DNA from: a virus
Taxonomy: Duplodnaviria; Heunggongvirae; Uroviricota; Caudoviricetes
Length of the DNA stretch: 36,962 bases
Strand: one strand, 5' to 3'
IMG/VR virus record: IMGVR_UViG_2534681703_000017
The position numbers and the translations under genes are program-made. The notes beneath the pieces were generated by a model. It saw nothing but the letters and a program-made list of their open reading frames with translations, had not been told where the DNA came from and did not search any database. Positions within the stretch are counted from its first letter, which is position 1; each line of letters opens with the position of its first letter. Positions 6,473-36,962 of this stretch are shown here, piece by piece.

Positions 6473-6477
6473 TCATT

Positions 6478-7833: not shown

Positions 7834-7834
7834 G

Positions 7835-8023: not shown

Positions 8024-8205
8024 AAACTATCACTGTAACGGTTGAAATCGACGTTCCTGATAACGCAACGGACAATGATATTGCTGATTTTGTCGATGTC
8101 GAGTATGGGGAGTGCGGAAAAATGGCACTTGATAACCCATGCCGGACAGATGGAACGGAAATACTCGATGCCAGATGGGAACACGGACCTGATTACGCGA
8201 GGTGA
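8020..8205 (+). CDS. Hypothetical small acidic protein (61 aa)
   Basis: Start overlaps the previous stop. Confidence 0.4.
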   Translation: MKTITVTVEIDVPDNATDNDIADFVDVEYGECGKMALDNPCRTDGTEILDARWEHGPDYAR

Positions 8206-8208
8206 AAT

Positions 8209-8466
8209 ATGAGATTGGTTGACCTTTTTATTATCGCTCTGATTATTACGGTTATTGCGCTTTGCGTTACAACGGGCAAGGAACCTGATGTTCCTGGTGA
8301 TACGGGTGGGCATTGCGTGGTAAGGAGAAGTTTCATCAAAACCATTACGCATTGTGATGATGGAAGCGCCACCATGACCAGCGGCGATAAGTTTATATAC
8401 TGCTCTGCCGGGAAAGATGGCACGCCATCCTGTCATGAAGTGACGCTCAGTGATGGTGATAAATAA
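8209..8466 (+). CDS. Small exported or membrane-anchored Cys-rich protein (85 aa)
   Basis: Hydrophobic N-terminus (LVDLFIIALIITVIALCV) followed by a four-Cys soluble part. Confidence 0.4.
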   Translation: MRLVDLFIIALIITVIALCVTTGKEPDVPGDTGGHCVVRRSFIKTITHCDDGSATMTSGDKFIYCSAGKDGTPSCHEVTLSDGDK

Positions 8467-8499
8467 TTCATCATGTTGAGCGGATAATAATCATGCGCA

Positions 8500-9192: not shown

Positions 9193-9527
9193 AAAAACTG
9201 TTATTACTTATTCTGACTTTATGTTTTACAGGGATATCCCATGCTTCTGATTCAGAGGAAGATTTGATCAAAAAAACATTACAGGGCGATTATCAGGCAC
9301 AACGTAATCTGGCTTATTCATACATGAATGGCTGGGATGATATTTCAAAGGATACCATCAGAGGATGCGCTCTCAGGAAGGTTATTCTCTTAACACAAGC
9401 CCAAGCTGACATTGGCGATTATGGAAATGAAGCCATAGATTGTCGAAAAGTGCATCCAACAGATAACCAGAAAGTATGGGAGTATGTCAGAGGATACCTG
9501 GTGTTGATAAACGAGAATAAAAAATAA
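9189..9527 (+). CDS. Secreted (signal-peptide) protein, unknown function
   Basis: N-terminus MKKLLLLILTLCFTGISHA is a classic cleavable signal peptide; sits between the GemA-like and Mor/C-like genes. Confidence 0.5.
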   Translation: MKKLLLLILTLCFTGISHASDSEEDLIKKTLQGDYQAQRNLAYSYMNGWDDISKDTIRGCALRKVILLTQAQADIGDYGNEAIDCRKVHPTDNQKVWEYVRGYLVLINENKK

Positions 9528-9539
9528 TATGAATAACAA

Positions 9540-9563
9540 CCTTCGCAAACGCGGAGGTTTTTT
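9540..9563 (+). terminator. Putative intrinsic terminator: CCTTCGC-AAAC-GCGGAGG (one G-U pair) followed by TTTTTT
   Basis: Stem-loop and T-run read from sequence, directly downstream of the gene ending at 9527. Confidence 0.5.
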
Positions 9564-14402: not shown

Positions 14403-14405
14403 TTA

Positions 14406-16001
14406 ATGGCACAGCTTGTTGATATTTGCGGACGCCCGCTGAAACGTGAGGCACTCAAAACCACGCAGTCGGTCAGAGTGGCGGAACGGCTGCGCATTTA
14501 TCCAGACCACCCGTCGCGTGGTCTGAACATCAGAAAACTGCCGCGCATTCTGGAAGCTGCCGAACGCGGTTATCTTCCGGCGCAGGCGATGCTGTTTGCG
14601 GATATGGAAGAGCGTGATGGTCATCTGTTCGCCGAGATGGAAAAGCGCAAAAAAGCGTTGCTGACGCTGGACTGGTCGGTGGAGCCGCCCCGCAATGCCT
14701 CGAAGGCAGAAAAGGAGCTGACTGCCGCCGTGGATGAGTGGCTGCACGGCATCCCGGACATGGAGGACATCATCCTCAACGGGATGACCAGTGTCGGTTA
14801 TGGCTTCAGTTGTCAGGAAATCAGCTGGGCGTTCGTGGATAAAACGTGGTTACCGGATGCGGTGACGCTGCGCCCGCATAACTGGTTTATTACCCTGCCG
14901 GAACACAATGACGAACTCCGGCTGGATGACGGCAACCGTGGGGAAGATGGTAAGGACGGCTCTGCACTGTGGCCGTTCGGCTGGCTGGTTCATCGTTACA
15001 ACGCCAGGTCGGGATTTCTGGGTTCATCCGGCCTGTTCCGCGTACTGGTCTGGCCGTATCTGTTTAAAAACTTCGCGCTGCGTGATATGGCGGAGTTTCT
15101 GGAGATTTACGGCCTTCCGGCGCGCATTGCGTACTATGCACAGGGCACCAGTGACGAGGACCGGGACAACATTCTTGAGGCGCTGGTCAATCTGGGTCAT
15201 GAAGCGGTGGCAGCCCTGCCGCAGGGTAACGAAATTGAGTTCAAGGAGGCCGCGTCCGGCGGACCGGAGGCGTTCATGTCGATGGTGGAATGGGCAGAGC
15301 GCACCACCTCAAAAGTGATTCTGGGCAGTACGCTGACCAGCCAGGCCGACGGTAAAACCTCCACCAACGCACTGGGTAATGTCCATAACGAGGTCAGGCA
15401 CGACATTCTGGCCGCCGATGCGCGCCAGCTGTCCGGCATGTTCAGCAGCCTGATACAGATGATGTCCAGCCTCAACGGCTGGCAGGATATCCCGCCACGC
15501 CGTCTGCCGCGACTGGTGTTTGATGTGCAGCAGGAAGCCGACATTAAGGGCGTGGCGGAAGCCGTCAGCGTGCTGGTCAACAATGTGGGAATGAAGGATA
15601 TCCCGGTGTCGTGGGTACGCAAAAAAACCGGTATCCCCACCCCGAAAGACGGCGAAGAGGTACTGGTGCCGGTGGCACAGCGTCTCCCTGTGCAGGCGGG
15701 CCTCAGCCAGTTGCGTGAGCGGCTGAATGTCGTCGCACTCAGTCAGCAGGACAACGGGGAGGACGACCCGGCACAACGCGCCATCGACCGGGCAGAACTT
15801 CCGGCAGAGGCCATCGCGCAGGGGATGAACGAACTGGTGGCCCCGCTGGTGCAGGCCATACAGGAAGGCCGGGATGCAGACGAGGCTATGAACGTACTGG
15901 CGGAAGCATGGCCGGAACTGCCGGATGAAACGCTGCGGCAGTTGCTGACACAGGCATTCTTTGTGGCGGATATCTGGGGGCGACTGAATGCCGAAAGCTG
16001 A
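14406..16001 (+). CDS. Portal protein (Mu gp29-like, DUF935)
   Basis: 531 aa following the large terminase; synteny and size. Confidence 0.75.
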   Translation: MAQLVDICGRPLKREALKTTQSVRVAERLRIYPDHPSRGLNIRKLPRILEAAERGYLPAQAMLFADMEERDGHLFAEMEKRKKALLTLDWSVEPPRNASKAEKELTAAVDEWLHGIPDMEDIILNGMTSVGYGFSCQEISWAFVDKTWLPDAVTLRPHNWFITLPEHNDELRLDDGNRGEDGKDGSALWPFGWLVHRYNARSGFLGSSGLFRVLVWPYLFKNFALRDMAEFLEIYGLPARIAYYAQGTSDEDRDNILEALVNLGHEAVAALPQGNEIEFKEAASGGPEAFMSMVEWAERTTSKVILGSTLTSQADGKTSTNALGNVHNEVRHDILAADARQLSGMFSSLIQMMSSLNGWQDIPPRRLPRLVFDVQQEADIKGVAEAVSVLVNNVGMKDIPVSWVRKKTGIPTPKDGEEVLVPVAQRLPVQAGLSQLRERLNVVALSQQDNGEDDPAQRAIDRAELPAEAIAQGMNELVAPLVQAIQEGRDADEAMNVLAEAWPELPDETLRQLLTQAFFVADIWGRLNAES

Positions 16002-17154
16002 CGATGTTGACCTGGGGTATGCGTACACCCTGAAACCGGAAGAAGCGATTAAGTATTTCGAAAGCAAGGGATACGTTATCGGCTTCCGCTGGCACGATGT
16101 GAAGGACATCGCCAGTGCCCGGGCGTTCACGGTGGCGGGCGTGCTGAAACTGGATGTGCTGAAGGATATCCGTGATGGACTGACGGCGGCACTGGCTGAC
16201 GGCGGGACGTTCCGGGAGTTTGCTGCACAACTGGAACCACTGCTGGAATCAAAAGGCTGGCTGGGTAAAAAACTGATTGTGGACGAGGACACCGGCGAAC
16301 TGCATGGCAGGCAGCTGACGCCGCGCCGGTTGCGTACGCTATTCGATACCAATATTCAGTCGTCATATAACGCCGGGCGTTATCAGCAACAGATGGCGAA
16401 CGTGGCTGACCGGCCTTATTTTGAGCGCGTGGCGGTGATGGACCTTCACACGCGCCCGAAACACGCCGCCCTGAACGGTTTTACCGCCCGGGCGGATGAC
16501 CCTGTCTGGGAGTATTTCTACGCGCCGGACGGATACGGATGCCGCTGCCGTATCCGTGCGCGTTCGGCGTCTGATGTGGAGAAATACGGCCTGACGGTGC
16601 AGAGCAGCGAGGGGCGACTGGTTGAGGTTGAACAGGAATATGGCCAGCCGGGCCAGACCATCAGAACGATGGGTCTGAAGATGCCGGATGGCTCCGTGTA
16701 TACCGCCGACCCGGGCTTCGGATTTAATCCCGGTCGGGTGGCATGGCAGCCGGAACTGGAAAAATATGATTACCGTAGCGCCCGCCAGTATGTCACCGGC
16801 ACCCTGACCGGGCCGGATTTTGCCCGGGGACTGGCGAACGTCAGCAAACTGGATGCGCGCCAGCGATATCCGCTGGCCATCCGTTCACCGGAACAGGTCG
16901 CTGCCACGGGCGCTGCACGGCAGACGGTAAACCTGACGGCTGACGTCATGAAGCGCCTCAGTGCAACAGACACGCCCCCGACCGCCGCCGACTATGTGCT
17001 GATGCAGCAGACCATCGAACGGGCGGAGCATGTCACGCAGGACGGCAACGCGTGGCGGTATGCGTTACAGTCAGGCGACCGCTGGTCGGTGGTGACGGTT
17101 GAGGATGACGTGCTGACAGACTGGGTTATGCAGGACACACCGGAGGCATCATGA
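15988..17154 (+). CDS. Head morphogenesis protein (Mu F / gp30-like)
   Basis: 388 aa after the portal, start overlapping the portal stop; Mu F position. Confidence 0.7.
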   Translation: MPKADDVDLGYAYTLKPEEAIKYFESKGYVIGFRWHDVKDIASARAFTVAGVLKLDVLKDIRDGLTAALADGGTFREFAAQLEPLLESKGWLGKKLIVDEDTGELHGRQLTPRRLRTLFDTNIQSSYNAGRYQQQMANVADRPYFERVAVMDLHTRPKHAALNGFTARADDPVWEYFYAPDGYGCRCRIRARSASDVEKYGLTVQSSEGRLVEVEQEYGQPGQTIRTMGLKMPDGSVYTADPGFGFNPGRVAWQPELEKYDYRSARQYVTGTLTGPDFARGLANVSKLDARQRYPLAIRSPEQVAATGAARQTVNLTADVMKRLSATDTPPTAADYVLMQQTIERAEHVTQDGNAWRYALQSGDRWSVVTVEDDVLTDWVMQDTPEAS

Positions 17155-24334: not shown

Positions 24335-26603
24335 TTTCAAAGTTGGCATGACCCTGACTGCGAAGGACGAAGCCTCGCAGGTTCTGGAAAAGGGGCAAAA
24401 ACAGGTTATCAAAGCCACCGAAGGTGTAACAAAGGCGACACGGAAGGCAGGCGCAGAGCAGAAGCGTACCGAGCAGGAAAGCATTAACAGCACGAAAAAG
24501 GCCGCAAAAGAGATACAGCGTGCCGCTCGTGCCCGGGAAACGCTCGGTATTCGTGCAGAGCGTGAGATCCAGCGTGAAATTTATCTGACGGTTGCCAGTT
24601 ATAACCGTCTGGCTCGTGCCGGTTTTGAATCTGCGCAGGAGCAGGAGCGCGCCATGCAGGCCACCCGGGAAAAAGCCCGGGCACTCAAGCGCGAACTGGA
24701 TGGCGTTACTCAGGCTCAGATGAAGATGGCGAAAACGCCTGTTATCCCTGAACCGGGTCGTTTTGCCCGTGCAGCTGCATTTGGCGGGAATGCCGTGACA
24801 ATAGGTGGTGGTATTGCAGCAGGTGCTGCCATTATGGCGCAGCCGGTCAAAAAGCAGATGAGCTACGAACGCCAGCTGGCAATGATGGCCAATACCGCCT
24901 TCAGTGATGGCGGGCTGGAGGGGCGCAGGGCTGGTCTTGAGCAGATGAAAAGCAGCATCCGTAACGCGGTGACCTATGGCGGCGGTACGAAAGAAGACGC
25001 AGCCGAAACGCTGGATGCCCTGCTGAAAGACGGCATTTCATTTGAAACAGCCAACAAGTGGCTGCCCGAACTGATGAAATACGCCACTGCTTCAGGCGCA
25101 TCTGCAACAGACCTGGCCAAGGTGATGATTAAGGGCAAAAAGACCTTTGGATTCAGGGATGAAGATATTTCCACCGTTCTGAATATGGCGATTGCAGCGG
25201 GCAAAGAAGGCAGCTTTGAACTGAACGACATGGCCCGCTGGTTATCCCAGCAAATGGGCGCTGCGTCAGCTGCGGGGATGAAAGGCAAGGATGATTTCGT
25301 CAAGATTCTGGCGCTGAATGAAGCTTCCGCCATCACGGCTGGCAGTAGTGATGAAGCTGGAAATAACGTGGTTAACCTGCTGGCAAAACTGACCAGTAAG
25401 GATATTGAAACAGCGGCTGCGGGGATAAAATACAACGGTAAGGGAATCGACTTTTCCGGCACGCTGACTGAAGCACGCGAGAATGGACTTAATCCGATAG
25501 ACGCGCTGTCCAGCCTGATAGACAAAATTGTTGCCAGTGATAAACGCTATCAGGAGCTGCAAAAGAAACTGGCATCCGCCCGGGACAAAGGCGAGCAGAC
25601 GGCTGTTTATGATTCGATGGCAAAACTCCTTGAAGGCTTTGGTGTCGGAAAGCTGGTTGCAGACCGTCAGGCGTTGATGGCGTTGTTAGCCTACCGTAAC
25701 AACCCGGAATACCGGAAAAAAGTTGAAGACGCGATTAATCAGCAGCGCACCCTGCCAGAAGGTCAGCGCGCCGGGGATGTGGATTTTAAATTCATATCAG
25801 ACACGAATGATTTTAAAACCGGGCAGGCTAAAAACACGCTTGAATTTTCACAAATGGATGGTGTGAAAAAACTGGCGGATGCATCCGGTACTGTGGCCGA
25901 TGCCATAAGCTGGGCGGGTGAAAAATTTCCGGGGCTGACCACAGCAGTGGTGGGTGCCACGACCGCCATTGAAGCGATGACCGCAGCGGCTCTGACATGG
26001 GCCGGGATCAAAATCCTGACCGGAGGTAAACCCGGTGGCAAGGCTGGCGAGGTTGTCGGTGATGTAATTGAAAACACGGTCAAAAAAGGCAAAGGATTTA
26101 AATTCCCCGGTATTGCCGGTGGCCTGCTTTCTTTAGGTGGCACTGTTACGGCACTGGCCACCGCAACCAGTCCGGAAGAAGATGCCGCCGTCGAAGGAAG
26201 CGAGGAGCGCTGGAAAAATATACGGGCTAAATATCCTCAGTGGCTGATTGATGCTGCCCGTGAAAAATATCAGCCGTGGTGGCAGTTTGGCGAAGGTTAC
26301 TCAACAGAAAACGAGAAATGGATCCAGCAGTATCTTGACGAACTGAAAAAAACTGGGGTTATCGCCGGTGATTCTCTGCCGACACCAGAACAAGTCCGAC
26401 AGCAAGCCGGAATGGCAGCGTCTGAAACGGCATCAAAGCAACCCGGACGCATCACCCAGCCGGAATACCTCACGCACTGGGGACCACCTGCCAGCCCCAT
26501 TAATTTCACCACACAACTGGTGCTCGATGGTCAGGTCGTGGCGGAAGCGGTGAATAAATACAACCTTCAGGACGGCAACAGAGGCACGGGAGGAACTTAC
26601 TGA
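24324..26603 (+). CDS. Tail tape measure protein
   Basis: 759 aa, Ala/Gly/Lys-rich, positioned after tube and chaperone. Confidence 0.75.
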   Translation: MAGNFKVGMTLTAKDEASQVLEKGQKQVIKATEGVTKATRKAGAEQKRTEQESINSTKKAAKEIQRAARARETLGIRAEREIQREIYLTVASYNRLARAGFESAQEQERAMQATREKARALKRELDGVTQAQMKMAKTPVIPEPGRFARAAAFGGNAVTIGGGIAAGAAIMAQPVKKQMSYERQLAMMANTAFSDGGLEGRRAGLEQMKSSIRNAVTYGGGTKEDAAETLDALLKDGISFETANKWLPELMKYATASGASATDLAKVMIKGKKTFGFRDEDISTVLNMAIAAGKEGSFELNDMARWLSQQMGAASAAGMKGKDDFVKILALNEASAITAGSSDEAGNNVVNLLAKLTSKDIETAAAGIKYNGKGIDFSGTLTEARENGLNPIDALSSLIDKIVASDKRYQELQKKLASARDKGEQTAVYDSMAKLLEGFGVGKLVADRQALMALLAYRNNPEYRKKVEDAINQQRTLPEGQRAGDVDFKFISDTNDFKTGQAKNTLEFSQMDGVKKLADASGTVADAISWAGEKFPGLTTAVVGATTAIEAMTAAALTWAGIKILTGGKPGGKAGEVVGDVIENTVKKGKGFKFPGIAGGLLSLGGTVTALATATSPEEDAAVEGSEERWKNIRAKYPQWLIDAAREKYQPWWQFGEGYSTENEKWIQQYLDELKKTGVIAGDSLPTPEQVRQQAGMAASETASKQPGRITQPEYLTHWGPPASPINFTTQLVLDGQVVAEAVNKYNLQDGNRGTGGTY

Positions 26604-27952
26604 TGGGCTGGGCTGAAAACCTGCAAAACGCCTCCTTTCGTGGCGTTCAGTTTGATGTACTGAACACGGATGAACAAATCAGCCGCGACCATGCGGTCTA
26701 TGAATACCCGTTTGTTGACGGGGCGGATTTGCACGACCTCGGGCGCAAGGCGCGACCGTTCCGCATGACGGCGTTCCTGTGGGGGGAGTATTACGAATAT
26801 AAACTCGAAAAGCTGATCGCCGCCCTGGACGAAGGCGGCGATGGTGAGCTGATTCACCCGGTTTATGGCTCCGTTCCGTCGGTGATTGTGACCGGCTACA
26901 GCATTCGCCATGACGCAGAAAGCCCGGACAGCTGCACCATCGACATGAGCTTTCTGGAGAATCGCACCGGCAGCGCGTTGTTCAGCACCCCGTTACCGGA
27001 GCTGTTTGCACAGCAGTTATTTGAAGAACTGGATAAGTTACTGGCACAGTTAAGCGAATTATTTGACGCTGTTACGGCCCCTTTAAAGACCATTAACAGC
27101 GTGATTAAAAAAATCCAGACGGTGCGTGCCACGCTGGTAAATACCCTGCTGACGTTCAAAAGTGATTCATTCTCCACAGTCGATAATGTTGTGTCACTGG
27201 CCAGCGAACCCGGAAAGTTTATCGGCGGGCTGGCAGAGGTGCTGGAAATCCACACGTCAGATGTCGGGCACGCGGTGCCGGTGCTGGAACGTACTGATTC
27301 CGCCACCACGACCGGGCTGACCGGAGAAGACAGCGTCGCCAGTTCTGCGACCGTGATGACCTGCTGGAATGAGGTGATGGCAGATATGGATGAGCTGGTC
27401 GCGCTGCCGGTCGCGCTGGTCAGCGGTGATAAAACGCCGTCTGTGGCACTTCCGCCGGATGCGTCCGTGGAAGACGTGCAGGATGTGAAAGCGGCTTATG
27501 CGGTTCTGGCGGCCTCAGAGCTGGCCAGCGTGGCGACGGCGATACTGTCCGATGAGGCCCAGTCAGAACAACTTATACCGGCGGATATCGGGCGACTGGT
27601 CGGGGATGTGCGCACCCGCTTACAGGCCGCCATCACGCTGTTCCGTGAACGCTATGAAGGCGAACGCGAACGGATAACCGAAACCGCATCACCACTGGGG
27701 CTGATGTACCCGGAAATCATTCAGAGCATGAAGAACGTGGCGGCATCCGTGCAGGATGTCGGCCTGCTGGTTCTGTCACGCCGCCCACCGCTGACGCAGA
27801 AACAGGTGCAGGCGGACAGCTGTCTGCTGTTGCTGGCGTGGCAGTGGTACGGTGATTACAGCCGTGCGGCAGAGCTGCAACGTCTGAACCCGCAGCTGCG
27901 TGCCCCGAACAACATAACCGCCGGGATGGTGATTAATGCCTACGCAAAATAA
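26603..27952 (+). CDS. DNA circularization protein (Mu N-like)
   Basis: N-terminus MGWAENLQNASFRGVQFDV matches the conserved W..L..ASFRGV.F start of the family as remembered; start overlaps the tape measure stop. Confidence 0.65.
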   Translation: MGWAENLQNASFRGVQFDVLNTDEQISRDHAVYEYPFVDGADLHDLGRKARPFRMTAFLWGEYYEYKLEKLIAALDEGGDGELIHPVYGSVPSVIVTGYSIRHDAESPDSCTIDMSFLENRTGSALFSTPLPELFAQQLFEELDKLLAQLSELFDAVTAPLKTINSVIKKIQTVRATLVNTLLTFKSDSFSTVDNVVSLASEPGKFIGGLAEVLEIHTSDVGHAVPVLERTDSATTTGLTGEDSVASSATVMTCWNEVMADMDELVALPVALVSGDKTPSVALPPDASVEDVQDVKAAYAVLAASELASVATAILSDEAQSEQLIPADIGRLVGDVRTRLQAAITLFRERYEGERERITETASPLGLMYPEIIQSMKNVAASVQDVGLLVLSRRPPLTQKQVQADSCLLLLAWQWYGDYSRAAELQRLNPQLRAPNNITAGMVINAYAK

Positions 27953-29138
27953 CGACGACAAAATCAGACTGGTCATTGCCGGAAGGTCGCATTCTGACTG
28001 GAGCAGTTATCGTATTGACAGCGATTTCCTGAAAGCCGCCGACGGCTGGCAGCTTCAGCTGGGACTGCCTGAAAAGGTGTTCCCGGCGGATATCGTCCGG
28101 GGCGCGCCGGTCCGGTTGCAGGTGGGAGACGAGACGGTGCTCAGTGGTCGCGTGGACAGCGTGCGCCGCAGTGTATCCCGTCAGAGCTGCACGCTGACCC
28201 TGTCCGGGCGTGATGATGCCGCCATCCTGGTGGACTGTGCCGCACCGGTGTTCAGCGCCAACCAGCTGACACTTGATGAGGTCATCGACAGGATAGTCAG
28301 ACCGCTGGGGATACAGCGCATCCGTATTCAGGCGTCCGGTGTGTCACGTAATGACAAGGTCGTTATAGAGCCGGGGATGCGTGCGTGGGATGCACTGGCT
28401 AAAGCTGCCGCCGGTCGCGGCTTATGGCCGTGGTTTGAGCCTGACGGGACGCTGGTTGTGGGTGGCCCTGACTACACCACCACGCCGGTGGATACACTGA
28501 TTCTGAAGCTGGATGGCACCGGGAACAACGTGATGGAGCTGGACGATACCCGGTCCATTAACGGCTGTTTCTCCGAGCTGACGGTGCTGGCCCAGAGCCA
28601 CGCCCGCCGCGCAGACAGCAAGAAACAGGTGGCCGTGGTGCCGCTGGATATCTGGAACGAGGACGGCAGCGTGCGCACGTTATCCAGGCAGGGCAGCGGT
28701 AATACAGGCAGTGGTCAGACAGGCATTCATAACATGAAAGCCGTGGCCACCGACCCCACCGTGGATTATTACCGCCCGCAGATTATCACCCAGGGCGACA
28801 CCAGTAACATGGAGCAGGTGAACTGGCGCGCAAAAAAAATGATGAGTGATGCCCGCCTGTCGGGGCTGGATATCGTCGCACTGGTTGCAGGTCATCGCAC
28901 GGCGGATGGTGTTCTGTGGCAGCCCGGCCAGCGGGTGCGGATTGTCAGCGAACTCCACGGCATTGATGCCATCTTTTTCCTGATGGGGCGTGAGTTCAGC
29001 GGAGGCCGGAACGGGCAGACAACCCGGCTTCGCTTTAAGGAGGACGGCGTGTGGATACCTGACGCCTTCCCGCGCGAGAAGAAACGCCATCGCAAAAAGA
29101 AAAAAGAGGTCGCCATTGTTAAGGTCTGGGAGAAATGA
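27936..29138 (+). CDS. Baseplate hub protein (Mu gp44 / P2 gpD-like)
   Basis: 400 aa in the baseplate block; synteny. Confidence 0.6.
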   Translation: MPTQNNDDKIRLVIAGRSHSDWSSYRIDSDFLKAADGWQLQLGLPEKVFPADIVRGAPVRLQVGDETVLSGRVDSVRRSVSRQSCTLTLSGRDDAAILVDCAAPVFSANQLTLDEVIDRIVRPLGIQRIRIQASGVSRNDKVVIEPGMRAWDALAKAAAGRGLWPWFEPDGTLVVGGPDYTTTPVDTLILKLDGTGNNVMELDDTRSINGCFSELTVLAQSHARRADSKKQVAVVPLDIWNEDGSVRTLSRQGSGNTGSGQTGIHNMKAVATDPTVDYYRPQIITQGDTSNMEQVNWRAKKMMSDARLSGLDIVALVAGHRTADGVLWQPGQRVRIVSELHGIDAIFFLMGREFSGGRNGQTTRLRFKEDGVWIPDAFPREKKRHRKKKKEVAIVKVWEK

Positions 29139-29788
29139 TGTGGGACAAGGTTAATCAGCGCGTACAGCAGGCACTGGCCGCCGTTCGCCAGGCATTCAGG
29201 GTGGTGACCGGTACGGTGGATAGTTCGACCAAAGTACAGCTACTTCAGCTGAGCGGGCTGGCAGGCGAACAGCTGGACGGTGCGGAGTATTTTCAGCATT
29301 ACGGCCTCACCACATCCCCGCCGCCCGGCTCAATGGGTATTGCCGTTCCGCTGAACGGTAATACCTCCCATACCGTCGTCGTGGCCACCGAGCACGGCGC
29401 ATATCGCCTGACGGAACTGAAACCCGGCGAGGTGGCCCTGTATACCGACGAAGGCGCGAAAATTGTGCTGAAGCGCGGACGGGTTATTGAGCATGAATGT
29501 GATATTTTTCGCGTGAAATGCAAACGCTATGAGGTTGAGGCAGAGGAAAGCGCCGCATTCACGACACCGTTACTGACGGCCTGCGATAAGCTGACGGTGG
29601 AAGGTAAAATCACCGGCAACGGTGGCATGGCCATCAGTGGGGGCAAGAAATACGCCGCCACCTTTGAAGGCAACATCAACCATGTGGGTGGTGTGATTAC
29701 CTCCGTTGACGTCACCATTAATGGCGTTAAAATCGGAACGCACAAACACCCGACCCCACACGGCATGTCTGACACGCCGGTTAATTAA
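29135..29788 (+). CDS. Baseplate spike/assembly protein (Mu gp45 / gpV-like)
   Basis: 217 aa, overlapping start; synteny. Confidence 0.55.
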   Translation: MMWDKVNQRVQQALAAVRQAFRVVTGTVDSSTKVQLLQLSGLAGEQLDGAEYFQHYGLTTSPPPGSMGIAVPLNGNTSHTVVVATEHGAYRLTELKPGEVALYTDEGAKIVLKRGRVIEHECDIFRVKCKRYEVEAEESAAFTTPLLTACDKLTVEGKITGNGGMAISGGKKYAATFEGNINHVGGVITSVDVTINGVKIGTHKHPTPHGMSDTPVN

Positions 29789-29803
29789 GTGCTGAACACC
29801 CTC
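29789..29803. promoter_or_regulatory. Conserved late-region motif, copy C (GTGCTGAACACCCTC)
   Basis: Exact 15-mer shared with 17858-17872; sits in the 53-nt gap starting right after the gp45-like stop, 38 nt before the next ATG. Confidence 0.4.
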
Positions 29804-29841
29804 ACCTGATTCTGACCTGTCCATGCTGCCAGACTGGCGGC

Positions 29842-30192
29842 ATGGACCAGACGATTTCACCTGCAACCGGCGACTACGAACGCCGCCGGATTTATACACT
29901 CCATAACTCGGTTTATCTGCGACTGGCGACACCGCTTGGCAGTTACTGGGCGGATACGTCGCTGGGGTCACGCCTGCACGAACTGAAGCGGGAAAAAGAC
30001 GTTTCCCGTGTTCACAGGCTGGCGGCGCAGTATGCCAGCCAGGCACTTCAGCCCCTGCTTGATGACGAGCGGGCAAAATCCATTACCGTTGACACGAAAG
30101 CGGGCCAGCGCGGCTGGCTGTTGCTGTTAATCACCGTCACGGATAACGCGGGCACACCGCAGACGTTTGAACACCCTGTGAGGATTATGTAA
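29842..30192 (+). CDS. Baseplate protein (Mu gp46 / GPW-like)
   Basis: 116 aa before the baseplate J-like gene. Confidence 0.55.
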   Translation: MDQTISPATGDYERRRIYTLHNSVYLRLATPLGSYWADTSLGSRLHELKREKDVSRVHRLAAQYASQALQPLLDDERAKSITVDTKAGQRGWLLLLITVTDNAGTPQTFEHPVRIM

Positions 30193-31271
30193 TGCCGTTT
30201 CCTGTTCCGGGCGTTGCTGAAAACACAGAACGCCAGCTACGTGATATCGCTAACGCTCTGCCGGGAGAAACCATAGATACCAGCGCAGACAGCGATTACC
30301 GCATTCGTGCCAATGCCGTATCCGGCGTGGCTGACGGGCTTTATATGCATCAGGGGTGGATACTCCGTCAGGTGTTTCCTGACACGGCAGACCCTGAATA
30401 TCTGGAGCTGCACTGCCGCACACGCAATGTTTTTCGTAAAAAAGCAACTGCCTCATCCGGTCAGGTGGTGATTACCGGCGCACCCGGTAAGACACTGCCA
30501 GCCGGTGCGGAAATTCGTGGTGAAGGTGTCAGCGTGGCCACCACAGCAGACTGCACCATCGGTGATGAAGGCAGCGCAGAGGTGACGGTAAAAAGCACCG
30601 CCACAGGTGCACAGACGAATGCATCCACGACGCAGACGGCAATGCTGGTCAGTCCGCCGGAAGGCATCAACAGCACGGTGACGATTAAATCCCTGACCGG
30701 CGGAACGGACAGGGAAAGCGACGCCGACCTGCTGGCGCGTTATCTGGATATTCTGCGCAGGCCGCCCGCTGGCGGTAACAAATATGATTACAAACGCTGG
30801 GCGCTGGAAGTGGATGGCGTTACGTCTGCGTATGTGGAGCCGTTGCGCCGTGGTCTGGGGACGGTTGATGTGGCCATTACGTCAGCCAATGACCTTCCCT
30901 CGCAGGAACTGATTAATGCCGTGCTGGCTCATATTGAGGAAGTCCGCCCGGTGACAGCGAAGGACATGATGGTACTGGCCCCGACGAAAAAAGCCGTTGA
31001 TTTCGTTGTCCGGGTAAAAACCAGCGGCCTGACCGTTGAGCAGATAAAACCGCAGATAACTGACGTTATCACGGATTTTATGAACCGACTGGAGCCGGGG
31101 CAGGAATTAATTATTTCACAACTGGAAACCCAGATTTCATTAATTTCCGGTGTCAGTGACCGGCGAATCATTACGCCAGCAGACAACGTAAAAGCCATTA
31201 TTAACGCGTCAACGTGGGAATGGCTGCGCCCCGGAAATATTGATATTCAGCCTTTTCCGCGTGAGGGGTGA
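30192..31271 (+). CDS. Baseplate wedge protein (Mu gp47 / gpJ-like)
   Basis: 359 aa; synteny. Confidence 0.65.
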   Translation: MPFPVPGVAENTERQLRDIANALPGETIDTSADSDYRIRANAVSGVADGLYMHQGWILRQVFPDTADPEYLELHCRTRNVFRKKATASSGQVVITGAPGKTLPAGAEIRGEGVSVATTADCTIGDEGSAEVTVKSTATGAQTNASTTQTAMLVSPPEGINSTVTIKSLTGGTDRESDADLLARYLDILRRPPAGGNKYDYKRWALEVDGVTSAYVEPLRRGLGTVDVAITSANDLPSQELINAVLAHIEEVRPVTAKDMMVLAPTKKAVDFVVRVKTSGLTVEQIKPQITDVITDFMNRLEPGQELIISQLETQISLISGVSDRRIITPADNVKAIINASTWEWLRPGNIDIQPFPREG

Positions 31272-31274
31272 TTC

Positions 31275-31847
31275 ATGAATATGGTCGATTTATTTCGCGC
31301 CATGCTGCCACCTGTCAGTTATGACCCGAACGGGAAATATATTTCCGCAGAACTGACCGCCGAGGCTGACGTCATGGAGGCCGTGAAGGCCTCAGCGGCG
31401 CGCGTTCTGGCACAAATCACCCCGTTGCAGGCATCGATGACGCTGTCCGACTGGGAGCGCGTGTACGGTGTTGTCCCCCGTGAAGGGGCAACACAACAGG
31501 AGCGGCGGCAGAATATTCTGGTAAAAATGGCAGCCACGGGCGGGCTGTCAATCCCTTACTTTAAGAGCCTTGCCGCCAGTCTGGGCTATACCATCACCAT
31601 TACGGAGCCGCGACCGTTCCGGGTGGGGATAAACCGCTGTGGTGACCATCTGCTGATACCGGAAATCCGCTGGGCGTGGCAGGTCAACGTTATCGGGACA
31701 AAAACACCGGTCTACCGGTTCAGAACGGGTGCATCGGCAACCGGTGAACCGCTGACGGCCTTCGGGGAATCCATTTTAGAAAACACGTTTAAAGACCTTA
31801 AACCGGCTTTTACAGACTGTTATTTCACGTATGAGGTGGAGGAATAA
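31275..31847 (+). CDS. Tail protein (Mu gp48 / P2 gpI-like, DUF2313-like)
   Basis: 190 aa between baseplate J and the tail fiber. Confidence 0.55.
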   Translation: MNMVDLFRAMLPPVSYDPNGKYISAELTAEADVMEAVKASAARVLAQITPLQASMTLSDWERVYGVVPREGATQQERRQNILVKMAATGGLSIPYFKSLAASLGYTITITEPRPFRVGINRCGDHLLIPEIRWAWQVNVIGTKTPVYRFRTGASATGEPLTAFGESILENTFKDLKPAFTDCYFTYEVEE

Positions 31848-32650
31848 TGCGGAATTTAATGCTCCCGGTGAATACGCCGGATAAGTTATTTCATGACGGT
31901 GACCCGACTCAGGGAATTGAGGGAACCATCGTTACTGCTGAATTTATGAATAATCATCAGGCGGCAACGCGTGATTTGCAGCAGGAGGTGATTAACGTCC
32001 TTAAAGAGGCCGGCGTCACCCCTGACCCGGAAAAACAAAACCAGCTGGTTGAGGCGCTGACCTCGTTTATTGGTCAGAAAGTCCCGGATGCATCACTGAC
32101 GCAAAAAGGCGTGGTGCAGCTTAACAGTGCTGTTAACAGTGAATCAGAAACAGAAGCAGCTACGCCAAAAGCGGTCAAGATTGCGATGGATAACGCAAAC
32201 GCCAGACTGGCAAAAGACCGTAACGGCGCAGACATCCCGAATAAACAATTGTTTCTGGATAACATCGGCGGTGCGCCGAAAACGCGCAAAATTAACAATA
32301 TGCCCCTGACGTCGGATATCACCATCAACAACATCGGCGGCAACGCCGGAACGGCAACCCGACTTCAGACGGCCCGCAGGATTAACAATGTGCTGTTTGA
32401 TGGCACCAGGGATATCACCATCAGTACCACCGATTCCGGCGCGGTGCGTAATTTTCAGTACACCAATGAGGTGTTTCACAACCCGGGTGGTAACGAAATC
32501 ACCTGGACGTTCCGCGCGCCTTCAGGCTGTCAGTTGTCGGGAATTTATGTCCAGGATACAGGAAGAGGTTCTGCGGATAACATCGGAGGTGTGTATTACA
32601 AACAAGCCCAGATTTATATCAATGGCGGATGGCGCGCGGTATCCGGCTAA
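31847..32650 (+). CDS. Tail fiber protein (short)
   Basis: Contains the conserved fiber motif KGVVQLNSAVNSESETEAATPKAVKIAMD; followed by a Tfa-type chaperone. Confidence 0.65.
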   Translation: MRNLMLPVNTPDKLFHDGDPTQGIEGTIVTAEFMNNHQAATRDLQQEVINVLKEAGVTPDPEKQNQLVEALTSFIGQKVPDASLTQKGVVQLNSAVNSESETEAATPKAVKIAMDNANARLAKDRNGADIPNKQLFLDNIGGAPKTRKINNMPLTSDITINNIGGNAGTATRLQTARRINNVLFDGTRDITISTTDSGAVRNFQYTNEVFHNPGGNEITWTFRAPSGCQLSGIYVQDTGRGSADNIGGVYYKQAQIYINGGWRAVSG

Positions 32651-32664
32651 TTAAGGAGAAAATA

Positions 32665-33189
32665 ATGGAACTCAGAAACGTTTCGCGTTATTACCCGGAA
32701 GAGATGCCTTATGGTGAAAACATTCAGTATTTTCGCAGTGAAGACGGACAGGATTTTTATGAATCACTGGATAAATTCACGAAGAAATACAAATTGTGTA
32801 TTCACCCTGAAAGCGGCGTGATTTATTCAATGGCGGAAGACGTGTCCCGTCTTTATCCGGCTGGCTTCACCATTGTGGAAGTGGATGAACTGCCGGAAGA
32901 TTTTGGCATTGAAGCCAGCTGGTATTACAAAGACGGCGAAGTGCTGCCGGTTCCTGTTGATTACTCGCGACTGGCAGAAAAAAAACGCCAGAGCCTGCTG
33001 AATGAAGCGAAGGACATCACCTCAGACTGGAAAACCGAGCTGGAGCTGGGCACCATCAGCGACGATGACAAAGCCCGTCTTACGCAGTGGATGGCATATA
33101 TCAAAGCGGTAAAGGCGCTGGATTTAAGTCAGGTCAGTGACGAATCCTCCTTTTATTTAATTCAGTGGCCTGAAAAACCTGACGTGTAA
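32665..33189 (+). CDS. Tail fiber assembly chaperone (Tfa/U-like)
   Basis: ATG 32665 is 6 nt after AAGGAG (32653-32658); C-terminal region resembles the lambda Tfa C-terminus. Confidence 0.65.
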   Translation: MELRNVSRYYPEEMPYGENIQYFRSEDGQDFYESLDKFTKKYKLCIHPESGVIYSMAEDVSRLYPAGFTIVEVDELPEDFGIEASWYYKDGEVLPVPVDYSRLAEKKRQSLLNEAKDITSDWKTELELGTISDDDKARLTQWMAYIKAVKALDLSQVSDESSFYLIQWPEKPDV

Positions 33190-33197
33190 AACAATAA

Positions 33198-33223
33198 CGG
33201 TCGCTGTCTGGCGACCGTTTTCA
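33198..33223 (+). terminator. Intrinsic terminator: CGGTCGC-TGTCTG-GCGACCG followed by TTTTCAGTT
   Basis: Perfect 7-bp stem and T-rich tail, between the first fiber/chaperone pair and the second fiber gene. Confidence 0.55.
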
Positions 33224-33236
33224 GTTCAGAGGCTTT

Positions 33237-36221
33237 ATGTCTGTATTAATTTCAGGTGCGCTGATTAATGGCGCTGGCGTTCCGATGGCGGAATGCAAAA
33301 TTTATTTAGATGCACTGGTTAATACCAGTGAAGTGGTTATTGAATCATTTGCGGTTATTGAAACCGATGCGGCGGGACAGTATGCCTTTGAAGCACAAAA
33401 AGGCAAATACACCGTACACATCAAGCAAAAGAACGGCCCTAAGTGCTGTGTGGGTGACATTTCGGTTTACGAAGATTCAAAGCCCGGCACGCTGAACGAC
33501 TTTCTGACTGCCCTTGATGAAGGCGATTTAAAGCCGGATGTAGTGAAACGCTTTGAGGAAATGGTGGCGCAGGCGCAGCAGAGCGCGGAAGCGGCAGCGA
33601 AAAGCGAACAACTGGCCGGGCAACACGTCGCTGATGCGCAGAAGATAAAGGCAGACTGTCAGACGCTGGCGGATAACGTAGCGCAGAACGCAGAAGACGT
33701 TGCTGAAGACAAAAAGCAGGTGGCGCTGCTGGCATCATCTGCCACACAGGATGCGGCCCGCGCAGAGCAGGCGGTCAAAGATGCCGACACGATAGTCCAG
33801 AAAGCGGTCGATAAACTCGGTGAAGCCGCAACGCTGAGCGGCGAGGCAAAGGCCAGTGCAGAAGCGGCAGCAAAAAGCGAGCAGGGCGCAAAACAGCACA
33901 GGGACGAGGCGCAACGGATAGTTGATGACCTGAAGGGAAGCAGTGCTTCCACGACAGAAAAAGGCCTGGTGCAACTCTGTAGTGATACGGACAACGACAG
34001 CGAAGAACTGGCAGCCACACCGAAGGCCGTCAAAACCGTCATGGACGAGACGAAAACAAAAGCGCCGCTGGACAGCCCGGCATTCACCGGCACGCCCACC
34101 ACACCAACCCCACCGGACGATGCTGCCGGTCTGGAAACAGCGAACGCGGCATTTGTCCGCAAACTGCTCGCTGCACTGGTTGACTCGTCACCGGAAGCCC
34201 TGGACACGCTGAACGAGCTGGCAGCGGCGCTGGGAAATGACCCGAATTTTGCGACGACAGTCACCAAAGCACTGGCAGGTAAACAGCCACTCAGTGACGT
34301 GTTAACCGCAATCAGTAATCTGGAAGAACGGGCAGATAATCTTCTGTGCTTTAATCAGGACGGAAATGCTTCACTGTCTCCACTGTCAGAAAAAGCCCGG
34401 TCACTGCTGGCACAGGCCACAGTGGAAGCTATGCGCAATGAGCTTGAGCTGAAAAGCGCAGCGGTAATGGATATTCAGACAGACATTCACGACAGCACGA
34501 AAGGCCGCATTGCGCTTCCCGGTGCGTATGGTTACGGAATGACGGACGCCGGAGCGCGTTCAATTATTGCCAGCGATATGGTGACTGTAGCCAGAACTGC
34601 GCACAACGTACATCCGGGACGGTATTACACCTTTTCCACGCAAACGGAAGAAACAACCGGGATAACAGAAATTATCTGGCTGGATAATGGCCGGGCCGAC
34701 AAAACCAGCCAGACAGCAACAAAGCTGGTTCTGTTTTTTGGAAAAGACGGACGGATTCTTATGACCGTTCGTGGCGATAATATCTCCGCCCCGGTCACCT
34801 GGACGAATCTGACGCCACAACTTGGCAATGCAGCACAGAAGGATGCGCAGGAGAATATTTACGACCGCACCGAAGGCCGTCTGGCGATTCCCGGCATGTT
34901 TGGATTCGGGAAAGTATTTTCCAGCGGCGACAGGACCGAGTTTAAAACAGAGGCCGATTTTCTCCGCTGGGTAAAAACGGCAAATCCCGGACGCTATGCC
35001 GTTTATGCAGATACAAATGCGGTAATACAGGGCGTGCTGTTCAAGGGTACCGTTGAAATTATCTGGCCGGAATCTCAACCCAGTCCCAATCCGGAATATG
35101 TGGCCAAAATCATTATTTTTTACGGTATTAACGGTCATATTTATTACAATCGCTACTGGACTACCGGAGATGGTTATCTGGTTGGCTGGGAAAACCTGAA
35201 GGTTGATGAGGCTTCACTCCGGGCACTGATTGAAACCCGCGCGCCACTGAACAGCCCGGCACTGACCGGAACGCCGTCCACGCCAACACCACAGGATGAT
35301 GCAGCAGGCACTGAAATAGCCAATGCGGCGTTTGTGCGCAAACTGCTCGCCGCACTGGTTGGCTCATCACCGGAAGCCCTGGACACGCTGAACGAGCTGG
35401 CAGCGGCACTGGGCAATGACCCGAACTTTGCGACAACCGTCACTAATGCACTGGCAGGTAAACAGCCGCTTAACGATACGTTAACCAGTATCAGCAAGGC
35501 AGGGGTGGGACAAAACTCTCTCCTTTATTTTGGTGATAACTTTAAAGCAAAAGCAATTCCATGCAGCAACAAGGCTCGCTCATTACTGGCACGAAACACG
35601 CCTGAATCCATGCGCGCGGAGCTTGAACTGAAAGCGGCTGCGACGATGGAACCCCAGACCGATATCCGTGACCGTACACCCGGCAGGCTGTCGCTACCGG
35701 GCGCTTTTGGCTTTGGTAAGGCATTCAGTAACACAGAAGCCCTGACATTTAACGGGCAGGCTGATTTTGCTGAATGGCTGAAGGAAGCCATGCCGGGGCG
35801 TTATGCGGTCAGTATTGCGGACTCTTCCACGCTGCTGGCTGGCACAACGAAATTTAACGGCATCATTGATGTGATGTGGTCACCCTTTGATAACGACGAG
35901 TCAGACACAGTGCGTAAATTCAAAACGCTGCTGTGTTTTAACCAGTATTACGAAGGTGAGCACAGTATTCATCGCCTGACTTACCGCTGGAGTGGAAACA
36001 ACTGGAATGCAACAGTAAGCCCCATTATTTACGACGGCGATTCGCTGGCCTTCCTGCTGTCCAGGACGGCGGGCTCAGGCTCATATTTCAAATACCCGGC
36101 AGTGGGTGTTCCAGTGCTGGCTGTTTATCGCGGAACAACTTTCGGGGATAAAGAAATCAATATTGGCCTGGGTGATGTGGTGCAGGGGTCACAACTGGGC
36201 GGAGTTAATCTTCGTGCTTAA
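33237..36221 (+). CDS. Side tail fiber protein, lambda Stf-like, with duplicated internal module
   Basis: N-terminus (ISGALINGAGVP...YEDSKPGTLNDFL) and the KGLVQL...LAATPKAVK...APLDSPA..GTP...LNELAAALGNDPNFATT..ALAGKQP block resemble lambdoid Stf as remembered; the block occurs twice. Confidence 0.75.
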   Translation: MSVLISGALINGAGVPMAECKIYLDALVNTSEVVIESFAVIETDAAGQYAFEAQKGKYTVHIKQKNGPKCCVGDISVYEDSKPGTLNDFLTALDEGDLKPDVVKRFEEMVAQAQQSAEAAAKSEQLAGQHVADAQKIKADCQTLADNVAQNAEDVAEDKKQVALLASSATQDAARAEQAVKDADTIVQKAVDKLGEAATLSGEAKASAEAAAKSEQGAKQHRDEAQRIVDDLKGSSASTTEKGLVQLCSDTDNDSEELAATPKAVKTVMDETKTKAPLDSPAFTGTPTTPTPPDDAAGLETANAAFVRKLLAALVDSSPEALDTLNELAAALGNDPNFATTVTKALAGKQPLSDVLTAISNLEERADNLLCFNQDGNASLSPLSEKARSLLAQATVEAMRNELELKSAAVMDIQTDIHDSTKGRIALPGAYGYGMTDAGARSIIASDMVTVARTAHNVHPGRYYTFSTQTEETTGITEIIWLDNGRADKTSQTATKLVLFFGKDGRILMTVRGDNISAPVTWTNLTPQLGNAAQKDAQENIYDRTEGRLAIPGMFGFGKVFSSGDRTEFKTEADFLRWVKTANPGRYAVYADTNAVIQGVLFKGTVEIIWPESQPSPNPEYVAKIIIFYGINGHIYYNRYWTTGDGYLVGWENLKVDEASLRALIETRAPLNSPALTGTPSTPTPQDDAAGTEIANAAFVRKLLAALVGSSPEALDTLNELAAALGNDPNFATTVTNALAGKQPLNDTLTSISKAGVGQNSLLYFGDNFKAKAIPCSNKARSLLARNTPESMRAELELKAAATMEPQTDIRDRTPGRLSLPGAFGFGKAFSNTEALTFNGQADFAEWLKEAMPGRYAVSIADSSTLLAGTTKFNGIIDVMWSPFDNDESDTVRKFKTLLCFNQYYEGEHSIHRLTYRWSGNNWNATVSPIIYDGDSLAFLLSRTAGSGSYFKYPAVGVPVLAVYRGTTFGDKEINIGLGDVVQGSQLGGVNLRA

Positions 36222-36383
36222 TATCTTCTCCTGGGGTTGGCTCCTACAATTCCGCACCGAGTGCAGGAGCTACAGGGTACACTTTCCCGGGGCGTTATAT
36301 GGCGCTATCCGGGGTCAGGGACTCTAAAGGAATAACCGGTCGTATCTGCCTGTTTGTGCGCATCGAGTAACGGGGAATAAAAC

Positions 36384-36962
36384 ATGAAAATCAGAGCGGT
36401 AAAGGGCATCAGAAACGCCCATTATCTTGAAAATGGTGCGGTTGACTGCGAGGTGTTATTTGAAGGTGAAACGGAATTCGTCCCGTATACCGCCATGCAG
36501 GATGATACCGCACCGACAGGCCAGCGCATCTGGGAAGAGTTGCAGAACGGCAAATGGGGCGAAATCGCCCCTTTCACTGTCACGCCGGAACTTATCGCCG
36601 CGGCGAAGGATGCCAAAAAGCAGGAAATCGAGGCATGGCGCACAGAACAGGAAGCACTGCCGTTCACCTTTGAATGGAACGGTCGCACCTGGAACGCTGG
36701 CCCCGACTCAATGGCCCGTCTTTATCCGGTAGTAATGGCGGCGAAATCCGATACGGCACGAACCGCCCTTGCATGGGGTGATGCCGATAATCAACAGGTG
36801 AAACTGTCAATGCCGGAACTGGAAGAACTGGCGACAGCAATGGCGCAGGCGCAGGTCGATCGCAATGACGAGATTTATCAGCGCCAGCGTGAAATGAAGG
36901 AAGAACTGAATAACCTGAATGATTTACGCTCAGTCAGAGCGATGCTGATTAGCAGTAATTAG
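36384..36962 (+). CDS. Putative tail fiber assembly/chaperone-like protein (DUF4376-like)
   Basis: 192-aa ORF after the Stf-like fiber with AACGGGGAATAAAAC upstream; family assignment uncertain. Confidence 0.4.
   Translation: MKIRAVKGIRNAHYLENGAVDCEVLFEGETEFVPYTAMQDDTAPTGQRIWEELQNGKWGEIAPFTVTPELIAAAKDAKKQEIEAWRTEQEALPFTFEWNGRTWNAGPDSMARLYPVVMAAKSDTARTALAWGDADNQQVKLSMPELEELATAMAQAQVDRNDEIYQRQREMKEELNNLNDLRSVRAMLISSN

Follow-up and report, generated by a model that had tools for sequence, protein, structure and literature searches.

The window analysed here, the whole stretch of 36,962 nucleotides, belongs to a Mu-type transposable prophage of E. coli, and all four genes of its fibre locus lie within the element. 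Profile matches in the window identify a MuA-type transposase (Mu-transpos_C 61.5 bits, HTH_Tnp_Mu_1 34 bits) and a MuB-type ATPase (AAA_22 81.5 bits), and its structural genes include Gp36, Gp37 and Gp48. A megablast search with the structural backbone (positions 8000-31000) against sequenced phages returned no match and no named nearest backbone relative, and an Rfam scan of the whole window was likewise without a match. The right-hand part of the window contains the following features:

31275-31847, + strand: baseplate wedge protein of the Mu gp48/YmfQ family (Pfam Phage_Mu_Gp48, 107.9 bits)
31847-32650, + strand: fibre 1, Mu S homologue, 267 aa (Phage_fiber_2; Mu S 5yvq_A, E = 1.3e-25)
32665-33189, + strand: Tfa, Mu U-type assembly chaperone for fibre 1, 174 aa (Caudo_TAP, 78 bits; Mu U 5yvq_B, E = 6.4e-16)
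33196-33223, + strand: GC-rich hairpin followed by UUUU; stem 33196-33205 / 33210-33219 (10 bp), loop GUCU
33237-36221, + strand: Stf-type fibre 2, truncated allele, 994 aa (phage_tail_N, Phage_fiber_2)
Fibre 2, N-terminal part (residues): collar domain 1-95; coiled coil ~95-235; Phage_fiber_2 238-277
Fibre 2, distal part (residues): module A 273-392; knobs 400-535 and 540-660; module A' 666-785; knob 795-920; start of the tip
36210-36214, + strand: frameshift site, CTTCG in the window versus CTTTCG in siblings, one T lost
36212-36370, + strand: orphaned last ~50 fibre-2 codons in another frame, ...PGRYMALSG...GRICLFVRIE, stop at 36368-36370 (from three-frame translation and the 1044-aa homologue)
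36384-36962, + strand: DUF4376 protein, 192 aa (Pfam DUF4376, 62 bits, cutoff 25; phrog_1141)

The gp48 gene is the last constant baseplate gene ahead of the fibre locus, and its stop codon overlaps the ATG of fibre 1. Within fibre 1, the N-terminal ~52-70 residues constitute the constant baseplate anchor of the family, while the distal part varies among its members. The relatives E2348/69, Ec55 and UMNF18 all conserve this N-terminus; for the E2348/69 prophage, collinearity with the window (91.6%) extends to fibre-1 codon ~52 and breaks off at position 32002. The tfa gene most likely starts at 32665 rather than at the mechanical ORF start at 32629, given the AAGGAG ahead of that ATG and the 174-aa gene calls in relatives. 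The first fibre and Tfa that the initial annotation had placed at 31847-33189 are thereby borne out as plus-strand homologues of Mu S and Mu U.

Fibre 2 opens with a phage_tail_N domain (PF08400) that scores 163.8 bits against a cutoff of 26.6 and covers profile positions 1-133 of 134. Its residues 1-93 match the Ur-lambda gpStfN structure (9e7m, E = 9e-18, 43% identity), and residues 2-187 bear a weak resemblance to XM1 gp40 (7kjk, E = 4e-6). The N-terminal domain of Ur-lambda Stf forms a collar around the tail, touching tail ring proteins (PMC12617516), and XM1 is a myovirus whose related anchor domain mounts trimers on the neck (PMC10457771). Searches of PDB sequences for a link to the XM1 neck returned only Mu gpJ for Gp36 and nothing for Gp37. 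The modules of fibre 2 are seen as internal repeats.

The second gene described earlier as chaperone-like is confirmed as a 192-aa ORF, but it belongs to the DUF4376 family instead of the Tfa family. A comparison of DUF4376 with Tfa proteins by hhalign gave a probability of 0.2 and no similarity, both alignments being shallow; these alignments did not bear out the published proposal that DUF4376 corresponds to the C-terminus of Mu Tfa. An AlphaFold2 model of the protein reached a pLDDT of 79.5 on an alignment of sequences at least 89% identical; Foldseek searches of the PDB with this model found nothing below E = 0.18, and a search of BFVD returned other DUF4376 proteins only. As the model matched no solved structure in these searches, the chaperone role gains no structural support beyond family membership. 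In other phages that role has been shown: Alteromonas V22 gp27 and the Campylobacter CJIE1 gene are experimentally required for active fibres, and the fibre of Alteromonas phage A5 is functional without its chaperone gp9 (PMC10579305, PMC7289586, PMC7882524). By analogy, the DUF4376 protein probably assists the assembly of fibre 2 as a chaperone or caps it.

The 994-aa Stf-like fibre of the initial annotation stands as an ORF with phage_tail_N and Phage_fiber_2 domains but not as a full-length gene, siblings encoding 1044 aa. In the intact siblings the stop codon ends at 36370, so that the DUF4376 ATG follows 13 nt after the restored stop, immediately 3' of the fibre gene. As the intact frame runs to 36370, the apparent intergenic gap of 162 nt is coding sequence orphaned by the frameshift. 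Most of the divergent fibre tips conserve the C-terminal motif PG.Y.ALSG...LF.RI[AE]. The closely related L011 differs from the window by one gap and zero mismatches over 10,578 nt; the 994-aa allele was found in one assembly only, and all six other full-length prophages with an identical DUF4376 (L005, L007-L011) carry the intact 1044-aa gene. Programmed frameshifting at 36210 was rejected, as the site has neither a slippery heptamer nor a long homopolymer. The assembly is a draft and the deletion of one base falls within a short T run; it may be an artefact of assembly, and this copy would then be intact. A frameshift was also observed in the RM9088 copy.

The second set was compared between Mu-like and phiP27-like backbones. 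From Stf codon ~70 onwards and through DUF4376, the window shares 85-89% DNA identity with the contractile-tailed phiP27-like phages, and the Stf proteins of both backbones are nearly identical from CVGDI on. Over Stf codons 1-70 dS between the backbones is 1.49, as compared to 0.32 over codons 70-280; at the protein level residues 1-70 of the anchor are approximately half identical and residues 1-96 show about 63% identity. Judging from these comparisons, the first ~70 residues of Stf track the phage backbone while the remainder is exchanged between backbones. The dN/dS values of Stf (0.29-0.44) and DUF4376 (0.16-0.31) indicate purifying selection. The layout of fibre, Tfa, Stf and DUF4376 is present in 23 of the 59 complete E. 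coli genomes positive for the Mu-like backbone, and its fixation in part of the Mu-like family argues that the Stf gene is an adapted virion gene and no recent add-on. The locus is an ordinary mosaic. The mosaic acquisition of a lambdoid cassette that had been suggested is therefore right as to mosaicism but too simple, in view of the DNA identity to phiP27-like phages, the backbone-specific N-terminus and the frequency of the layout. Literature searches on Mu-like prophages with side tail fibres, Rac-SA53, phiP27 fibres and PF08400 did not find this locus type as a study subject.

Between the two sets lies the hairpin, for which folding of a 61-nt stretch gives -20 kcal/mol (z = -3.8, none of 200 shuffles equally stable). 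Nine relatives conserve it; in L002 one G-C pair has become G-U. The tail after the full stem is UUCAGUUC, with four consecutive U's of which two are able to pair with the stem, and a shorter stem of 8 bp would leave UUUUCAGU as the tail; in a terminator scan the site fails the plus-strand rule and is listed on the minus strand only. What had been called a clean intrinsic terminator is in consequence a conserved hairpin with a short U-run and, at best, a weak or partial intrinsic terminator. With 13 nt from the U-run to the Stf ATG and no promoter-like site found by scanning ahead of Stf, read-through is by anatomy the sole option for expression of fibre 2, as the initial annotation had expected. 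It is conceivable, if less probable, that the hairpin is not a terminator at all but an mRNA-stabilising or processing element, or the scar of a former operon end carried along with each Tfa module. The short U-tract would agree with this, as would the observation that each Tfa type has its own hairpin, the shared sequence starting only past it, at TCAGAGG; moreover, the phiP27-like phages, in which the gap between Tfa and Stf is only 23 nt, manage without a hairpin, and attenuation is thus not needed for the system. However, in L015 and L016, two relatives with another Tfa, this spot is taken by a different hairpin that makes a textbook canonical terminator, a 7-bp GC stem followed by TTTTTATCATT, and the maintenance of two unrelated hairpins at one position argues for a function there. 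A weak terminator remains the more probable reading.

The last base of the window is the last base of the DUF4376 stop codon, and the right end of the prophage lies outside it. The contig L006, which matches the final 10,579 nt of the window without a difference, reaches a Mu-type right end, ...CGCGAAGTTACA, 82 nt past the DUF4376 gene, followed by host genes. The same right end, 82 nt after DUF4376, is found in 13 further related prophages at other chromosomal loci, which amounts to 14 different flanks with one common 82-nt right end. A target duplication of 4-5 bp was found at eutC and at yjfJ/yjfK, the exact length of 4 versus 5 bp being ambiguous. What the co-oriented Stf-type fibre and DUF4376 genes occupy here is the variable slot at the right end of this Mu-type E. 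coli element.

A search for a serine invertase by tblastn with a Gin probe gave no match below E = 5 in the window and 10 kb of its right flank, the gix/cix core AAACCNNGGTTT occurs in the window at chance level only, and no long inverted repeats were found in the window. The E2348/69 sibling prophage (L017), which has a fibre set in inverted orientation, an invertase remnant and cix-like repeats separated by 1883 nt, served as positive control: the Gin probe matched it at E = 4e-12, demonstrating that the search is able to find an inversion system. That the second fibre stems from an adjacent separate prophage, or that an invertase and inverted repeats just past the window make it a disguised G-segment-type switch, might be entertained since the window, stopping at the DUF4376 stop codon, could not decide the matter alone, and since the E2348/69 sibling truly carries an invertible set. 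Yet the element ends 82 nt further on in L006 and alike in the 13 relatives elsewhere, the Gin search over window and flank was negative, no gix core stands out and both sets are co-oriented, which leaves this explanation with hardly any probability. The tandem, co-oriented sets without an invertible segment proposed for a Mu-like prophage are thus confirmed; the rightward extension that had been called for led to the prophage end without an invertase in 10 kb, and the common end at 14 insertion sites places the second fibre within the same prophage. Of the "two complete sets", co-orientation holds and completeness does not, set 2 being frameshifted in this copy.

Taken together, these observations make it likely that the co-oriented second fibre set in the right-end slot is displayed together with the first, conferring a fixed dual specificity without phase variation. 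The late tail operon would provide the transcript for both sets, with fibre 2 reached solely by read-through of the weak terminator hairpin and its dose lowered. Fibre 1 would sit on the baseplate via its family-constant N-terminus, and fibre 2, by analogy with the ring around the tail in Ur-lambda and the neck in XM1, may be mounted through its N-terminal domain, with DUF4376 folding or capping its tip. An intact phage would then carry both receptor-binding fibres simultaneously, where Mu switches between two. In the window copy fibre 2 has lost its conserved 50 C-terminal residues through the deletion; as read from the sequence, fibre 2 is probably inactive here and only fibre 1 made, comparable to lambda PaPa without Stf, in which stf is likewise frameshifted (PMC12617516). 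This is the practical point for the present prophage.

Two further readings of the second set have to be weighed. The set might be decaying cargo without a role in infection, frameshifts being normal for a dispensable gene. In its favour, frameshifts occur in both the window copy and RM9088, L004 is reduced to a deleted remnant, and lambda Stf is dispensable for plaque formation (PMC12617516). We regard this as improbable, since L005 and L007-L011, all with identical DUF4376, encode the intact protein, the truncated allele is limited to one assembly, the dN/dS values of both genes are well under 1 and the Stf anchor is adapted to the backbone. L004 was also considered as a functional hybrid of the fibre-1 anchor and the distal part of Stf and rejected, since on translation the deletion junction proves to be out of frame and the copy a heavily deleted remnant. 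Somewhat more credible, but still unlikely, is that both fibres are made and fibre 2 is attached at the baseplate or branches off fibre 1 instead of forming a neck or tail collar; such an attachment is known for the LtfA/LtfB fibres of some T5-like phages. With its 267 aa, fibre 1 is short, and in Mu-like and phiP27-like backbones alike it always stands ahead of Stf, as would fit an adaptor; but it is completely different between the backbones whereas the divergence of the Stf anchor is only moderate (~63% identity over residues 1-96), and lambda mounts the same domain without any fibre 1, contacting tail ring proteins (PMC12617516). Our preferred reading remains the joint display of two sets, each with its own anchor.

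More tentatively, Mu-like and phiP27-like E. coli phages in general might carry lambda-type side fibres as a neck or tail-ring collar away from the baseplate fibres, with an adaptor of ~70 residues and a terminator-tuned dose, as an alternative to Gin-type phase variation. If true, the Stf adaptor would allow a single fibre cassette to pass among siphoviruses and two types of myovirus. How a lambda-type collar docks on a sheathed tail is a concrete structural question. Within one Mu-like family, the slot before the right end thus offers two ways to broaden the host range, an invertible fibre set or a second, fixed fibre that brings its own anchor, and the sharp mosaic boundary at Stf codon ~70 marks a natural site at which engineered fibres could be joined to different tail types.

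The order of fibre, Tfa, Stf and DUF4376 is already known from phiP27, Rac-SA53 and many E. coli prophages: in phiP27 (L54-L57), Rac-SA53 (tail1-tail4) and vB_Apl-pPE4 (gp67-gp70), genes for a fibre, Tfa, an Stf-type fibre and DUF4376 are co-oriented at the right end of the genome, as in the window. The phiP27-like phages, temperate and with a contractile tail, are integrase-type prophages with a different baseplate, whereas the window is transposable; their fibre 1 is unrelated to that of the window, and their backbone has no megablast match to the window's structural genes. DUF4376 also directly follows the fibre gene in V22 (gp27), A5 (gp9) and CJIE1, in distant hosts and at low identity. 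Ur-lambda Stf resembles fibre 2 in its collar domain, coiled-coil shaft, Phage_fiber_2 repeat and downstream helper gene. However, lambda is a siphovirus with the collar on an exposed gpV/gpM junction while the window phage has a contractile tail, the lambda helper is a Tfa (Caudo_TAP) instead of DUF4376, and the lambda Stf tip is T4 gp37-like and binds OmpC, whereas the tip of fibre 2 is unrelated to it and comes with triplicated knobs. The collar spike gp40 of XM1, a Vibrio myovirus that is not Mu-like, shares an N-terminal Ig-like domain and coiled coil with the window's Stf but is unrelated in its distal part. Mu itself carries a G segment with Sc, Sv-U / U'-Sv' and Gin, the E2348/69 sibling has the same type of locus, and both share with the window the backbone family, the constant fibre anchor, an S/U-type first set and the slot before the right end. 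Unlike in Mu, the second set of the window is co-oriented, has its own anchor domain, uses another chaperone family and comes without an invertase, which points to simultaneous and not alternating display.

By its gene content, the window represents a transposable prophage of the Mu type, encoding a MuA-type transposase (Mu-transpos_C and HTH_Tnp_Mu_1 domains), a MuB-like ATPase, Gp36, Gp37, a tail sheath protein and Gp48. The features relevant here are:

173-850, minus strand: repressor
31275-31847: gp48, directly upstream of the fibre locus
31847-32650: fibre 1, 267 aa, matching Mu S (E 1.3e-25)
32665 (likely start, with AAGGAG ahead of it): Tfa, homologous to Mu U (E 6e-16)
33196-33219: hairpin, with UUUU after the stem
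33237-36221: Stf ORF (fibre 2), 994 aa, with a phage_tail_N domain (163.8 bits) and a Phage_fiber_2 repeat
36384-36962: DUF4376 gene, 192 aa, starting 162 nt past the Stf ORF, its stop codon ending on the window's final base

The DUF4376 protein occurs with identical sequence on at least 24 contigs. Contig L006 (GCA_000355295.1) matches the window's final 10,579 nt without a single difference and supplies the rightward extension called for in the initial annotation: it reaches the prophage end after 82 nt more of phage sequence, closing with ...AAAACGCGAAGTTACA, and then passes into host DNA. The same 82-nt end, with unrelated host genes beyond it, is found in L001, L002, L004, L005, L007-L011 and L015-L018, and all 14 insertion sites, L006 included, are different. 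Because this phage end following DUF4376 is common to 14 insertion sites, Stf and DUF4376 are placed by the comparison within the transposable element, and the locus is a genuine part of the prophage. The possibility that the second fibre belongs to an adjacent, separate prophage did not hold up, as no second prophage was found beyond the right end.

The left ends of the relatives in STEC313 and E2348/69 start with TGTGGGGTAGTG and contain repeated TTCTGGGC motifs, which are present in the right end too, and a duplication of 4-5 bp is seen in the flanks. Compared with these relatives, the window stops short of both prophage ends, by about 150 nt on the left and 82 nt on the right; the absent left end begins with TGTGGGGTAGTG and holds two TTCTGGGC repeats, the third forming the window's first bases. 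The right-end junction reads ...GTTAC-A in 14 of 14 loci (L001, L002, L004-L011, L015-L018), and in the two cases with both flanks known the duplication is either 4 bp after ...TTACA or 5 bp starting with A. In E. coli UMNF18 (L016 12519-15656) the end of the Mu-like prophage directly adjoins tail genes of another prophage (hypothetical protein, Tfa, tail sheath), into which, as a resident, it seems to have transposed. A strongly deleted remnant of the same prophage adjoins flhDC (L004 3591-10579): its repressor, ner and truncated transposase now abut the baseplate genes, fibre 1 breaks off at codon ~21 and runs on, in a different frame, into the distal half of Stf, and both DUF4376 and the right end survive.

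The absence of an invertase and an invertible segment, as initially annotated, was confirmed. A Gin sequence, used as a search probe only, found no match in the window or in 10 kb of right flank, which also speaks against an invertase just downstream; no long inverted repeats were found in the window, and the crossover core AAACCNNGGTTT is no more frequent there than by chance. On these searches, the fibre locus of the window does not invert. The sibling prophage of E. coli E2348/69, a Mu-like element inserted in eutC whose fibre set resembles the G segment, served as positive control. It is collinear with window positions 12752-32002 at 91.6% identity and diverges beyond, where its Tfa and fibre-tip set is inverted and cix-like repeats AAACCTTGGTTTGGGAGAA and TTCTCCCAAACCAACGTTT lie 1883 nt apart (L017 8943-8961 and 10845-10863). 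Since its own invertase is reduced to a 31-residue remnant (L017 10925-11017), inversion would require an invertase in trans. As this sibling is collinear up to the slot but carries the inverted set, the alignment indicates one slot with two contents, a Mu-style invertible segment or a tandem Stf cassette. A third family member, Ec55, has a single long fibre. A survey of 5,426 complete E. coli genomes found the backbone in 59 and the Tfa-hairpin-Stf junction in 23.

Elsewhere along this alignment, window stretches 448-1366, 5858-6493, 7637-8484 and 9200-9558, which span the repressor/ner immunity region together with a number of small early genes, are without counterpart in E2348/69 and appear to be swapped as cassettes. 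In the sibling, terL and a DUF1804 gene are separated by a DNA methyltransferase gene (L021 21967-22707), an insert that appears to be absent from the window because the alignment breaks at the matching position, 12744-12752.

The initial annotation counted two complete fibre sets, which is not the case for the window copy, where the Stf frame is broken at 36210-36214 (CTTCG, compared with CTTTCG in siblings). The homologue in the phiP27-like prophage L003 is 50 residues longer and ends in GRICLFVRIE; the missing tail is encoded in another frame of the window, with a stop at 36368-36370, 13 nt ahead of the DUF4376 ATG. This tail carries the motif PG.Y.ALSG...LF.RI[AE], retained in most otherwise differing fibre tips, and fibre 2 is thus probably defective in the window copy. 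An inactive copy and an error in the draft assembly are the two alternatives. The intact-Stf sibling L011 differs from the window over 10,578 nt by one gap, at this very position, and no mismatches, and the 994-aa allele is recorded in a single assembly. Recoding at the frameshift was rejected, as a slippery sequence is absent. Stf further contains three related knob domains and a direct repeat (34062-34318 and 35241-35497; 257 nt, 83% identical) that is part of a duplicated module preceding related knobs. As homologous fibres span 490 to 1061 aa, the repeats suggest that modules are gained and lost through recombination between them.

The "clean intrinsic terminator" described between the two sets stands as a stable hairpin (z = -3.8) that nine relatives share, a single G-C pair having become G-U, but its tail has only four U's and it is absent from the plus-strand sites of the terminator scan. 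L015 and L016, which carry a different fibre 1 and Tfa, have an unrelated hairpin at the same spot (AGCCGCC-CGAA-GGCGGCT, then TTTTTATCATT), by its sequence a canonical terminator, and their homology with the window resumes only past it, from TCAGAGGYTTTATG; phiP27-like phages have a 23-nt gap without a hairpin. Since a sequence scan found no promoter-like site upstream of Stf, read-through, as originally proposed, is the sole visible route to its expression, which we infer the hairpin to attenuate.

The fibre-1 N-terminus is conserved across the Mu-like family, as would fit a baseplate anchor resembling Mu Sc. For the Stf N-domain, a match was found to gpStfN of Ur-lambda, which in 12 copies builds the collar at the gpV/gpM junction that carries four fibres (PMC12617516), and a weaker one to gp40, the collar spike of XM1, present as six trimers on the neck of this myovirus (PMC10457771). 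By analogy, an intact phage of the Mu-like family would, we infer, display both fibres simultaneously, with Stf mounted on an exposed tail or neck ring. In Alteromonas V22 and Campylobacter CJIE1, fibre activity depends on DUF4376 proteins (PMC7289586, PMC7882524), and a transient-cap role has been proposed for them (PMC10579305). The predicted model of the window's protein (pLDDT 79.5) found no relative among solved structures, and no similarity to Tfa was found.

Four other phages or prophages, each with contractile-tail genes, share the order fibre, Tfa, Stf, DUF4376: phiP27 (L54-L57), Rac-SA53 (tail1-4), vB_Apl-pPE4 (gp67-70) and one in strain P13-6. Their DNA is 85-89% identical to the window starting at Stf nucleotide ~206. 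Residues 1-70 of Stf exist in one version in all Mu-like members and another in all phiP27-like members, thus by sequence tracking the backbone, while past CVGDI the two versions are almost identical; synonymous divergence is 1.49 over codons 1-70 and only 0.32 over codons 70-280. Stf has a dN/dS of 0.29-0.44, DUF4376 one of 0.16-0.31. Sequenced phages with the Stf N-terminal domain comprise 286 records, of which four, phiP27-like, show 60-80% identity and the other 282 less than 60%, these being mostly lambdoid among the matches listed; the domain of lambda Stf itself is 43% identical to the window's. The suggested mosaic uptake of a lambdoid cassette needs qualifying: a mosaic boundary lies at about codon 70 of Stf, and the gene order already exists in phiP27-like phages. 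Set beside these phages, the locus is made of known parts in a known order.
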